Shown in pieces: positions 50,511-50,801 of a stretch of 64,000 bases of DNA. This stretch comes from Bdellovibrionales bacterium (lineage in GTDB: Bacteria; Bdellovibrionota; Bdellovibrionia; Bdellovibrionales; JAUICD01), in assembly GCA_965203275.1 (NCBI GenBank), contig OZ241865.1, forward strand, positions 1,696,001 to 1,760,000. Reading direction: 5' to 3'. How positions within the stretch are numbered: the first letter of the stretch is position 1; each line of letters starts with the position of its first letter. The notes beneath the pieces are model-generated. The model did not search any database, had not been told where the DNA came from, and saw only the letters and a list, made by a program, of their open reading frames with translations. The translations under genes and the position numbers were made by a program.

Positions 50511-50801
50511 ATTTTCCTTAACATGGAGTTAAAAAACGAGAGGATTCTTCCTACTAAAAATAAACGGATTTTTGAGGCAATCAGCCTTTTATCGACGGCG
50601 ACAGCCGTCGGGCTAACTATTAGAAGGATGTTTTCCTTAACATGGTGTTAAGAAACGAAGAGATCCTCCCTACTCAAAGTGAACAGGCTTTTGAGACAAT
50701 GACCATTTTGTCAAAGGCGAAAGCCTTTGCGGTCATTGTCCAAAAGTGGCCAGAGGCCAGTTCACTTTGAGTGAAACAGAGGCTGGTTTATTTTTAGTGA
50801 A
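50511..50801 (+). mobile_element. Nested structured repeat elements (inner copy ~50632-50775)
   Basis: Outer arms TACTAAAAATAAAC / GTTTATTTTTAGTG bracket a full inner unit; outer copy resumes at CAGAGG. Confidence 0.9.

Follow-up and report, generated by a model that had tools for sequence, protein, structure and literature searches.

We analysed a 64,000-base stretch of the genome of a Bdellovibrionales bacterium (contig OZ241865.1, positions 1,696,001 to 1,760,000; hereafter the window), in which a short non-coding hairpin repeat occurs both singly and with one copy inside another. The source genome (G000) is one contig of 2,567,810 bases with 35% G+C, and the bacterium carrying the repeat is probably host-associated. 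An earlier examination of the window, here called the original prediction, had described four loci at which a complete unit sits within a second one. The architectures returned by nhmmer bear this out, a complete copy being flanked by host halves at all four (Table 1). The junction described at these loci was recovered as well: the inner 3' terminus AGTGAA stands within 1-3 nucleotides of the CAGAGG or CAAAGG of the host, with spacers AAA (1703-1705), C (24736), G (28600), T (28626) and A (50776).

At the third locus three 3' ends are stacked near 28574-28627, as had been noted. They are the end of the full copy and those of two remainders, which on inspection of the sequence end in CCTTTG-G (28574-28600) and CCTCTG-T (28601-28626). 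The two 5' parts of this cluster (28788..28985) stand 129 bases apart, and their arms are not matched by those of the stacked remainders. In the nest at 50505-50802 the arm of the 3' remainder (GTTTATTTTTAGT) is complementary to the host 5' arm (ACTAAAAATAAAC) at 13 of 13 positions; the remainder at 24708..24737 is mismatched to its host 5' arm (10/13). The host at 50505..50622 lacks about 10-15 bases of its return arm.

Table 1. Hairpin-repeat copies and parts of copies in the window. Model positions are coordinates of the profile built from 646 full copies.
Feature	Window position	Strand	Model positions	Details
Host 5' part	1428..1548	+	8-131	GCATTGCTC...AGAGCAAAC type
Complete inner copy	1550..1705	+	11-164 (match 1550-1704)	AGTGAA 1697-1702, spacer AAA 1703-1705
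Host 3' remainder (CAGAGGTGTGGCTCATTTTGAGTGAA)	1706..1733	+	138-164	arm against host 5' arm 13/13
Host 5' part	24891..25013	-	8-131	
Complete inner copy	24734..24889	-	11-165	3' end 24737-24742, spacer C 24736
Host 3' remainder	24708..24737	-	136-164	plus-strand TTCACT at 24710, CCTCTG at 24730-24735
Two 5' parts	28917-28985, 28788-28911	-	62-130, 7-130	last 30 bases missing
Complete copy	28625..28782	-	7-164	
Two stacked 3' remainders before the 3' end of the full copy	28574..28626	-	138-165 (28598-28625)	identified from the sequence
Host 5' part	50505..50622	+	11-128	ends ...GGGCTAACT
Complete inner copy	50622..50776	+	9-165 (match 50622-50778)	leader TTAGAAGGATG, AGTGAA 50770-50775, spacer A 50776
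Host 3' remainder	50777..50802	+	138-163	CAGAGG 50777-50782, return arm, AGTGAA 50796-50801
Solitary complete copy, tail CCAAA	45418..45577	+		heptamer microsatellite just 5' (45370-45412)
Complete copy splitting an Rpn-family nuclease gene (11132-11806)	11806..11961	+		just before AGGAGG and the ATG of the downstream open frame

Abundance and anatomy of the hairpin repeat

A first profile, built from the copies in the window, gave 1,339 non-overlapping matches in the source genome at an expectation value (E) <= 0.001; 739 were full length, and the matches spanned 164,546 bases (6.4%). A second profile, rebuilt from 646 full copies and run with nhmmer over the whole genome with filters off and E <= 5, recovered 1,784 pieces spanning 178,840 bases. 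The repeat makes up about 6-7% of the 2.57-Mb genome.

The minimal unit of ~157 bases runs from GAAGGAAC to AGTGAAACA, that is, from GAAGGAAC-TTTTT-CCTTAACATG to AGTGAA-ACA. Its leader (model 1-21) closes with GAAGGAAC-TTTTT, and a 5' module opens with CCTTAACATG at model 22. An outer arm of 13 bases (59-71) pairs with 147-159; the unit also has a middle stem, a tip hairpin and a side hairpin at 134-146, and AGTGAA occupies model 157-162. When the copy at 45418..45577 was folded as single-stranded DNA, it reached -41.2 kcal/mol (z = -10.2 against shuffled sequences) as a three-armed structure, a long hairpin with a small side hairpin of 5 base pairs around the loop AGA. In this fold CAGAGG begins with the final stem base of the side hairpin, continues through the AGA loop and takes in two bases at the start of the return stem.

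The terminus could be read in 959 of the 967 copies extending to the 3' end and is AGTGAA in 729, AGTGAG in 103, AGGGAA in 86 and AGTGCA in 34. Despite the many arm types in the family, perfect complementarity of the 13-base-pair outer arms is found in 531 of 669 intact copies. Inspection of the ends (GAAGGAAC... and ...AGTGAAACA) revealed no terminal inverted repeats and no inverted likeness.

Heptamer microsatellites of the GGGATCC or GGCAACC kind lie directly 5' of the leader at several places in the window (25048-25355, 1968-2047, 55077-55130 and the tract in Table 1). Microsatellite-like sequence stands upstream of 76 of the 265 solitary full copies and downstream of 8, and 24 heptamer-microsatellite bases form part of the inserted stretch in the split Rpn gene. 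Slippage, membership of the mobile unit and a preferred landing site are all possible explanations. In about 65-78 copies the next bases are ATGTTAAGGA, which is reverse-complementary to the 5' module of the element itself; such tail-to-head inverted joins occur in the window at 24696-24715, 1732-1745 and 1945-1958.

One 3' junction recurs throughout the genome

The original prediction had proposed a fixed 3' junction on the basis of the four nests. When all copies were tabulated, 133 of the 959 readable 3' ends were followed, after 0-4 bases, by CA[GA]AGG and then by a host 3' arm and terminus. From the heptamer frequency of the genome, [AC]CA[GA]AGG would be expected behind 0.43 of the 959 ends by chance. 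The proposed junction holds well beyond the window. The spacer is A in 109 of the 133 cases and C in 21; a further 12 ends fit the same junction more loosely. At the side hairpin the CA of the tail and the CA of the host are indistinguishable, and the join lies somewhere between C137 and G140.

Orientation is constrained too. Counting neighbouring pieces as adjacent when they are <=15 bases apart, we found 823 adjacencies on the same strand and 33 on opposite strands. A 3' end is followed by a 5'-truncated copy at 442 junctions, 204 of which resume at model 135-143; the remaining resumption points are recurrent too, namely 21-22 (73 cases) and then 53, 79, 87, 100, 82, 115 and 121.

The copies that meet at this junction are of mixed type. 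Across the 133 junctions, 14 inner-arm types are joined to 23 host-remainder types, and 69 distinct pairings occur. The 86 copies ending in AGGGAA form a subfamily that is conserved at 0.92-0.99 over model 128-165, and 50 of them stand before ACAGAGG and host remainders of many other, older types. These counts confirm the nesting as real and orientation-specific, with one junction used far more often than chance would allow.

The junction word TTWAGKGAAMCAGAGG occurs 114 times in the source genome and 14 times in the sister species G001, with no occurrence of the reversed control in either, which shows the same junction in the sister species. Over window positions 40001-60000 gene identity to G001 is about 73-76%, and little gene order is shared. 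The word is absent from G002, G003 and G004.

The element carries its own tail and duplicates no target bases

Behind AGTGAA the consensus continues with A (0.83), C (0.62), A (0.79), A or G, and A. The original prediction took the (A/C)CA found after non-nested copies to be a target preference. The flanks it listed are present (CCAAACG at 45573 and at 10767, the latter on the minus strand, where ACAAA also occurs at 25463 and 58939), but their interpretation did not survive comparison with empty sites. In two filled/empty pairs (A/C)CA is missing from the empty site, and it is present in the shortest head-to-tail joins, which read AGTGAA-ACA-GAAGGAAC-TTTTT-CCTTAAC (4 of the 61 full-to-full head-to-tail junctions in the genome). 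Because the empty sites lack it and the head-to-tail joins contain it, (A/C)CA is the element's own tail.

An initial screen for filled and empty sites returned 2,716 candidate pairs, whose flanks were themselves other repeats, and stricter filters were therefore applied. The comparison that had been suggested between related genomes or reads could be realized between paralogous sites within the source genome, where it yielded one clean pair and others with replaced bases. In the clean pair, the copy at genome positions 1827537-1827692 sits between GGTTGTT and TGCTAGCC, which adjoin at the empty paralogous site 1812352/3; the inserted stretch begins with GATAGAAGAAC and ends with AGTGAAACA, and no bases are duplicated. 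For the copy at 2498115-2498274, compared with the empty site 1200434-9, the insert ends in ACA and 5 target bases are replaced. Further insertions into other repeat families have lost 6-12 target bases. The argument against DDE cut-and-paste transposition is accordingly supported: there is no duplication in the cleanest pair, 5-12 bases are lost elsewhere and the ends have no inverted-repeat likeness. The ends of the unit and the missing target duplication are established, as are the junction, its orientation and its enrichment.

Another family of palindromic repeats (GAGCTTGCTC - TTTAAAA - GCAAGCTC, flanked by conserved sequence) also serves as a landing site. There the hairpin repeat sits in the loop of the palindrome, part of whose return arm is lost. 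Examples lie in the window at 1400-1425 and 1755-1790 and in the genome at 454705-454871, among many more, and the left half of this palindrome regularly stands in front of copies whose leader is TTTTAGA(A/G)GCATATC.

The 5' junction is variable and falls into classes

The 5' junction had been described as ragged, with part of the host's return arm deleted. Variable ends and arm loss were indeed found: across the 21 simple complete nests the host 5' part ends anywhere from model 97 to 141, and most nests lack 4-40 bases of the host return arm. The raggedness is nevertheless structured. Left junctions form classes with 10-40 members, and every class has a linker of its own (for example AAGGTGTAAGAAGGAAC, ATTAGAAGGATATTTT and ATCAGAAGGAAATC); host ends lie, for instance, near 131 (40 copies), 103 (30) and 112 (24). 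In two clean nests, moreover, the host has lost nothing, being intact to C137-G140 on the left and resuming at C138 on the right. At genome position 569389 it reads ...TAGCCAG before the insert and CAGAGGCTA after it, and at 759637 ...CATGCC before and CAGAGGCATG after, so that two or three bases (CA or CAG) are present on both sides.

Flanking sequence is shared asymmetrically. Among the 265 solitary full copies, 579 pairs share upstream sequence (175 of them microsatellite-like), 123 share downstream sequence and 41 share both. Either the 5' flank is sometimes carried along, or insertion favours landing behind certain sequences. A 35-base stretch of gene-internal sequence from beside the insertion site in the split Rpn gene recurs with full identity downstream of two intact Rpn genes (105180-105340 and 465240-465395), ahead of a microsatellite and the beginning of a repeat copy, as though the upstream flank had travelled with a copy. 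Recombination could also have produced both the shared upstream flanks and these recurring 35 bases.

Probable insertion of younger copies into older ones

Outside clusters we counted 265 full copies, 165 5' parts and 57 5'-truncated copies. Among the clusters, a 5' part joined to a full copy accounts for 46, a full copy followed by a 3' remainder for 42 and the simple complete nest for 21. As a general pattern, a complete unit inside another therefore holds for the 21 nests but is outnumbered by the incomplete forms. In all, 475 5' parts lack a 3' end and 527 3' pieces lack a 5' end. One array at 280638-281490 consists of five units in a row, head to tail, each running from position 22 to the tail.

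The outer arms identify which pieces belong together. In the 21 simple nests the host arms are perfectly complementary to each other in 10 cases and the inner arms in 19; the cross pairs are perfect in 1 case (host 5' with inner 3' arm) and in 0 cases (inner 5' with host 3' arm). Inner copies are thus more intact than their hosts. When host halves were paired by the stacking rule, 25 of 76 pairs matched perfectly compared with about 9 after shuffling, and the mean arm match was 10.84 compared with 10.11 (standard deviation 0.15).

Taken together, the matching of arms, the mixing of types at the junction, the behaviour of the AGGGAA subfamily and the entry into unrelated DNA lead us to conclude that younger copies inserted into older ones and that they strongly preferred a single site and a single orientation.

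Enzymes encoded in the genome

To look for enzymes that could move the repeat, we searched the whole source genome in six frames with protein-family profiles, using 14 genomes as a control. The original prediction favoured a retro- or HUH-like mechanism, which gained no positive support from this one-contig genome. There were 0 matches to the Y1 HUH transposase (PF01797; control positive in 6 of 14 genomes), 0 to reverse transcriptase (PF00078; 3 of 14) and 0 to either domain of the IS110-type DEDD transposase (PF01548, PF02371; 6 of 14 for these controls). The Y2 transposase (PF04986) had no match, with a control silent in 14 of 14 genomes, and other Rep families were not searched. No TnpB-sized match was present, the sole PF07282 match lying within a 1365-residue open frame.

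The recognisable transposases of the genome, IS256 and IS1634, are both DDE types and do not fit the junctions. IS256 was further rejected as the mobiliser because it has no match in the repeat-bearing genome G004. The serine recombinase is shared by all five genomes of the family, whether or not they carry the repeat, and tyrosine recombinases gave two matches only; neither was retained. In the window the serine recombinase (resolvase) gene at 51867-52590 is broken into open frames of 92 and 140 residues, and three intact paralogues lie elsewhere in the genome. Rpn genes of the Transposase_31 type were discarded on account of 16 matches in G003, a genome without the repeat. Multi-copy open frames (L022, L024 and others) belong to no Pfam or NCBIfam family and gave no useful protein-atlas lead. 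Multi-copy proteins of 670-700 residues (574414-576525, 2082706-2084730 and 26960-28996) have a signal-peptide-like start and many tandem helix-turn-helix units of the kind that binds DNA in transposases, with no catalytic domain.

The most abundant multi-copy genes encode Rpn-family PD-(D/E)XK nucleases of two Pfam types. The PDDEXK_2 type is present in all three repeat-bearing genomes (14, 5 and 1 matches). The repeat splits an Rpn-family gene in four paralogues and leaves five intact, and four Rpn gene copies abut the 3' end of the element at the same base. The split genes (TIGR01784, PDDEXK_2) lie at 11132-11961 in the window and at 892492-893654, 907566-908806 and 2024930-2026218 in the genome. 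The split point falls just before a ribosome-binding-like AGGAGG and the ATG of a downstream open frame that carries tandem four-residue repeats (GMEK-like). Rpn proteins have been described as defence nucleases of the toxin-antitoxin type, in which a small antitoxin is internal and four-residue repeats vary (PMC10400941), and the Rpn genes of this genome likewise carry four-residue repeats. The split layout recalls the arrangement of long toxin and short antitoxin described there for rpn genes (PMC10400941), and insertion of the repeat may uncouple the nuclease from its antitoxin. In symbionts, PDDEXK2 genes have been called transposases on context alone (PMC12445526).

Other features of the window include ankyrin-repeat genes with signal-peptide-like starts (50868-51782, 49853-50251, 53465-54661 and 59675-60073), which belong to families with multiple copies throughout the genome. 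At 17563-18600 lie long tandem repeats in coding sequence, with units of 60 and 24 bases in which Pro, Gln and Thr codons abound, and a 231-base unit stands in four tandem copies at 43929-44921, three of them 99-100% identical.

Discussion

The explanation that we prefer, with a probability of roughly 0.55, is that the hairpin repeat is a self-targeting, non-autonomous mobile element with a precise 3' end, which makes no target duplication, prefers the loop edge of its own side hairpin and is overlaid by recombination. New copies would be added without target duplication, the precise end (AGTGAA with its tail A(CA)) being joined preferentially, and always in the same orientation, at C^CAGAGG, the 5' edge of the side-hairpin loop of a resident copy. 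With its 3' end joined at the resident's own hairpin, the element would therefore carry its favourite target. The other join would be loose, leaving the host intact in a few cases, removing ~4-40 bases in many and eliminating the left part altogether in others. Afterwards copies would recombine, shuffling arms and modules and blurring the nests. We infer that insertion is replicative, that the folded side hairpin is recognised and that the left join is made by imprecise repair or by a copy step.

A number of observations weigh against this explanation. Just one filled/empty pair is clean; the others have replaced bases or look-alike empty sites, and some of the "empty" sites resemble the element's own 3' end. 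All pairs are paralogous sites inside one genome, and the direction of change is inferred. No replichore strand bias is visible, plus and minus clusters being even along the genome, where the GC skew is too weak to define replichores. No candidate enzyme was identified for the repeat, and PDDEXK_2 genes are also found in 4 of 28 related genomes in which blastn with a single copy of the repeat had no match, one of them with 14 such genes matched. To these are added the composition of the clusters, in which complete nests are the minority, and the sharing of left junctions, both of which bear on the alternatives.

The strongest of these is that a few ancestral nests were spread by homologous recombination or gene conversion among the ~1,300 copies, the fixed junction reflecting identity by descent. 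We consider it unlikely, while taking it seriously. Incomplete clusters, mismatched halves (51 of the 76 paired host halves are not perfectly complementary) and shared junctions fit heavy recombination among copies. The linker classes of the left junction fit the spread of a few old junctions by recombination equally well, and at least 4 inner types are found within one host type whose left and right junctions stay the same. The AGGGAA subfamily is less conserved in its 5' module (0.4-0.8) than at its 3' end (0.92-0.99), which points the same way, part of this gradient being an artefact of choosing the subfamily by its 3' end. That a homogeneous AGGGAA subfamily is joined to many host remainders, however, is difficult to reconcile with descent from a few nests, and the 6-7 conserved bases (CAGAGG) that precede the variable arm are too short to anchor ordinary homologous exchange. 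The greater integrity of inner copies (19 of 21, against 10 of 21 hosts) is the age order expected from insertion, and copies also lie within unrelated DNA and within a gene.

The cluster forms also leave room for the opposite polarity: the newcomers would be short 3' pieces (model 138-162) and further 5'-truncated pieces, copied from the 3' end, halted at the side hairpin and added behind a resident copy. Such pieces would resemble the truncated copies of target-primed or rolling-circle elements. The scheme would account for the 156 of 236 stacked 3' remainders that have no left partner, for the 42 clusters of full copy plus remainder against 21 complete nests and for 21 remainders that stand alone. 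The small set of positions at which truncated pieces begin (138, 21-22, 53, 79, 87, 100, 115 and 121), the head-to-tail arrays of units from position 22 to the tail and the excess of shared upstream over shared downstream flanks are consistent with it too. We nonetheless judge it improbable. Most of the remainders that follow young AGGGAA copies have arms of other and older types, the host halves in 10 of 21 nests match each other and not the inner copy, and 5' parts (475) are about as common as 3' pieces (527); no reverse transcriptase or Y1 enzyme, moreover, was found in the genome.

That the unit is a structured RNA gene or RNA-processing signal, with junctions that reflect selection on the RNA, is very improbable. 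Its stems do vary with complementarity kept, but no Rfam family matched within the 64-kb window at gathering score, and the roughly 1,300-1,800 copies and fragments, with their nests, truncations and in-gene insertion, behave as a DNA element. Assembly errors between repeats are scarcely credible as the source of the nests: the short-read contigs of four public runs do end at repeats and span no nest (Logan contigs, window 42001-60000), but the genome is one 2.57-Mb contig, the junction word recurs 14 times in the separately assembled sister species with a control of 0, and the join is exact to the base in 109 of 133 cases, unlike chance misjoins.

If the repeat is mobile in the way that we prefer, it resembles several known systems in part. 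REP and REPIN sequences are palindromes of 20-40 bases, or pairs of them, which form mosaic intergenic arrays without terminal inverted repeats or target duplication. Like them, the present repeat forms high-copy intergenic hairpins in mosaic clusters, shows compensating changes in its stems, is bound to a lineage and shows no target duplication in the clean pair; unlike them, it is a three-armed unit of ~157 bases for which no Y1 gene was found in the genome and which inserts in one orientation into the loop of its own kind. REP, BIME and REPIN sequences with RAYT (Y1 HUH) transposases occur in enterobacteria and pseudomonads (PMC3333891, PMC3116915). Some insertion sequences, namely IS1397 and ISKpn1 and IS110-family members such as ISPpu9, target REP hairpins (PMC1525189, PMC12288879). 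They too choose a repeated palindrome as landing site and keep a fixed orientation, but they are autonomous, encode their own transposase and target a different repeat, whereas here target and invader are the same short non-coding family, in a genome in which no IS110-type enzyme was found.

Miniature elements of the IS200/IS605 group insert on the 3' side of a fixed tetra- or pentanucleotide, which lies directly against the left end, and depend on a TnpA (Y1) or TnpB gene. IS91-type elements have one precise end beside a short preferred target and one loose end, and can carry flanking DNA along. The hairpin repeat shares with IS200/IS605 miniatures and with IS91, ISCR and Helitron elements the dependence on hairpins and the lack of inverted terminal repeats and of target duplication. 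The precise 3' end, the preference for CAGAGG and the greater sharing of upstream flanks are reminiscent of IS91, ISCR and Helitron elements in particular, a likeness that recombination could also explain. It differs from both IS200/IS605 and IS91 in that the tail beside the precise end belongs to the element and not to the target, as two empty sites indicate, and from IS200/IS605 in that no Y1 and no TnpB-sized gene was found in the genome. A DDE-type miniature inverted-repeat transposable element would have terminal inverted repeats and a target duplication of fixed length, neither of which was seen. Retroelements that use target-primed reverse transcription, group II introns and retrons differ in their need for a reverse transcriptase, of which none was found in the genome.

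Rickettsia palindromic elements and other repeats of host-associated bacteria are abundant, measure 100-150 bases and sometimes lie inside genes, and the enzyme that mobilises them is unknown. The resemblance to the present case extends to the abundance of palindromes, a reduced, probably host-associated genome rich in ankyrin genes and copies within genes; the Rickettsia elements are not known to nest in one another at a set position of a loop. Nor do we know of a bacterial hairpin repeat other than REP-RAYT and IS200/IS605 whose mechanism is known. The nested long terminal repeat retrotransposons of plants offer a formal parallel, with younger copies inside older ones and preferred entry regions (PMC6911290). 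Those elements, however, are eukaryotic, kilobase-sized and reverse-transcribed, and have target duplications (PMC6911290). Full-text searches of the literature, which covered few subscription journals, turned up no bacterial hairpin repeat described as nesting in its own loop. New here are the base-level junction, its statistics, the ends of the element, the filled/empty pairs and the enzyme inventory.

A self-target exact to the base and a strict orientation, without target duplication, are found here in a genome in which the enzymes that usually explain such features were not found. It is conceivable, though doubtful, that the mover is of an enzyme class new to DNA mobility, either the Rpn/PDDEXK_2 nucleases or an unannotated protein. 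Such an enzyme would nick the folded C^CAGAGG loop, join the 3' end there and leave the other end to copying or repair, a mechanism of its own apart from those of REP-RAYT, IS200/IS605 and IS91. Because the host sequence is known from the family consensus, each nest records both its filled and its empty state, and the chemistry of insertion is thus unusually readable from sequence. If an enzyme can be tied to the repeat, it would represent a new route of DNA mobility and a natural reagent that recognises hairpin loops; if recombination alone explains the pattern, the repeat shows how far gene conversion can shape a repeat population.

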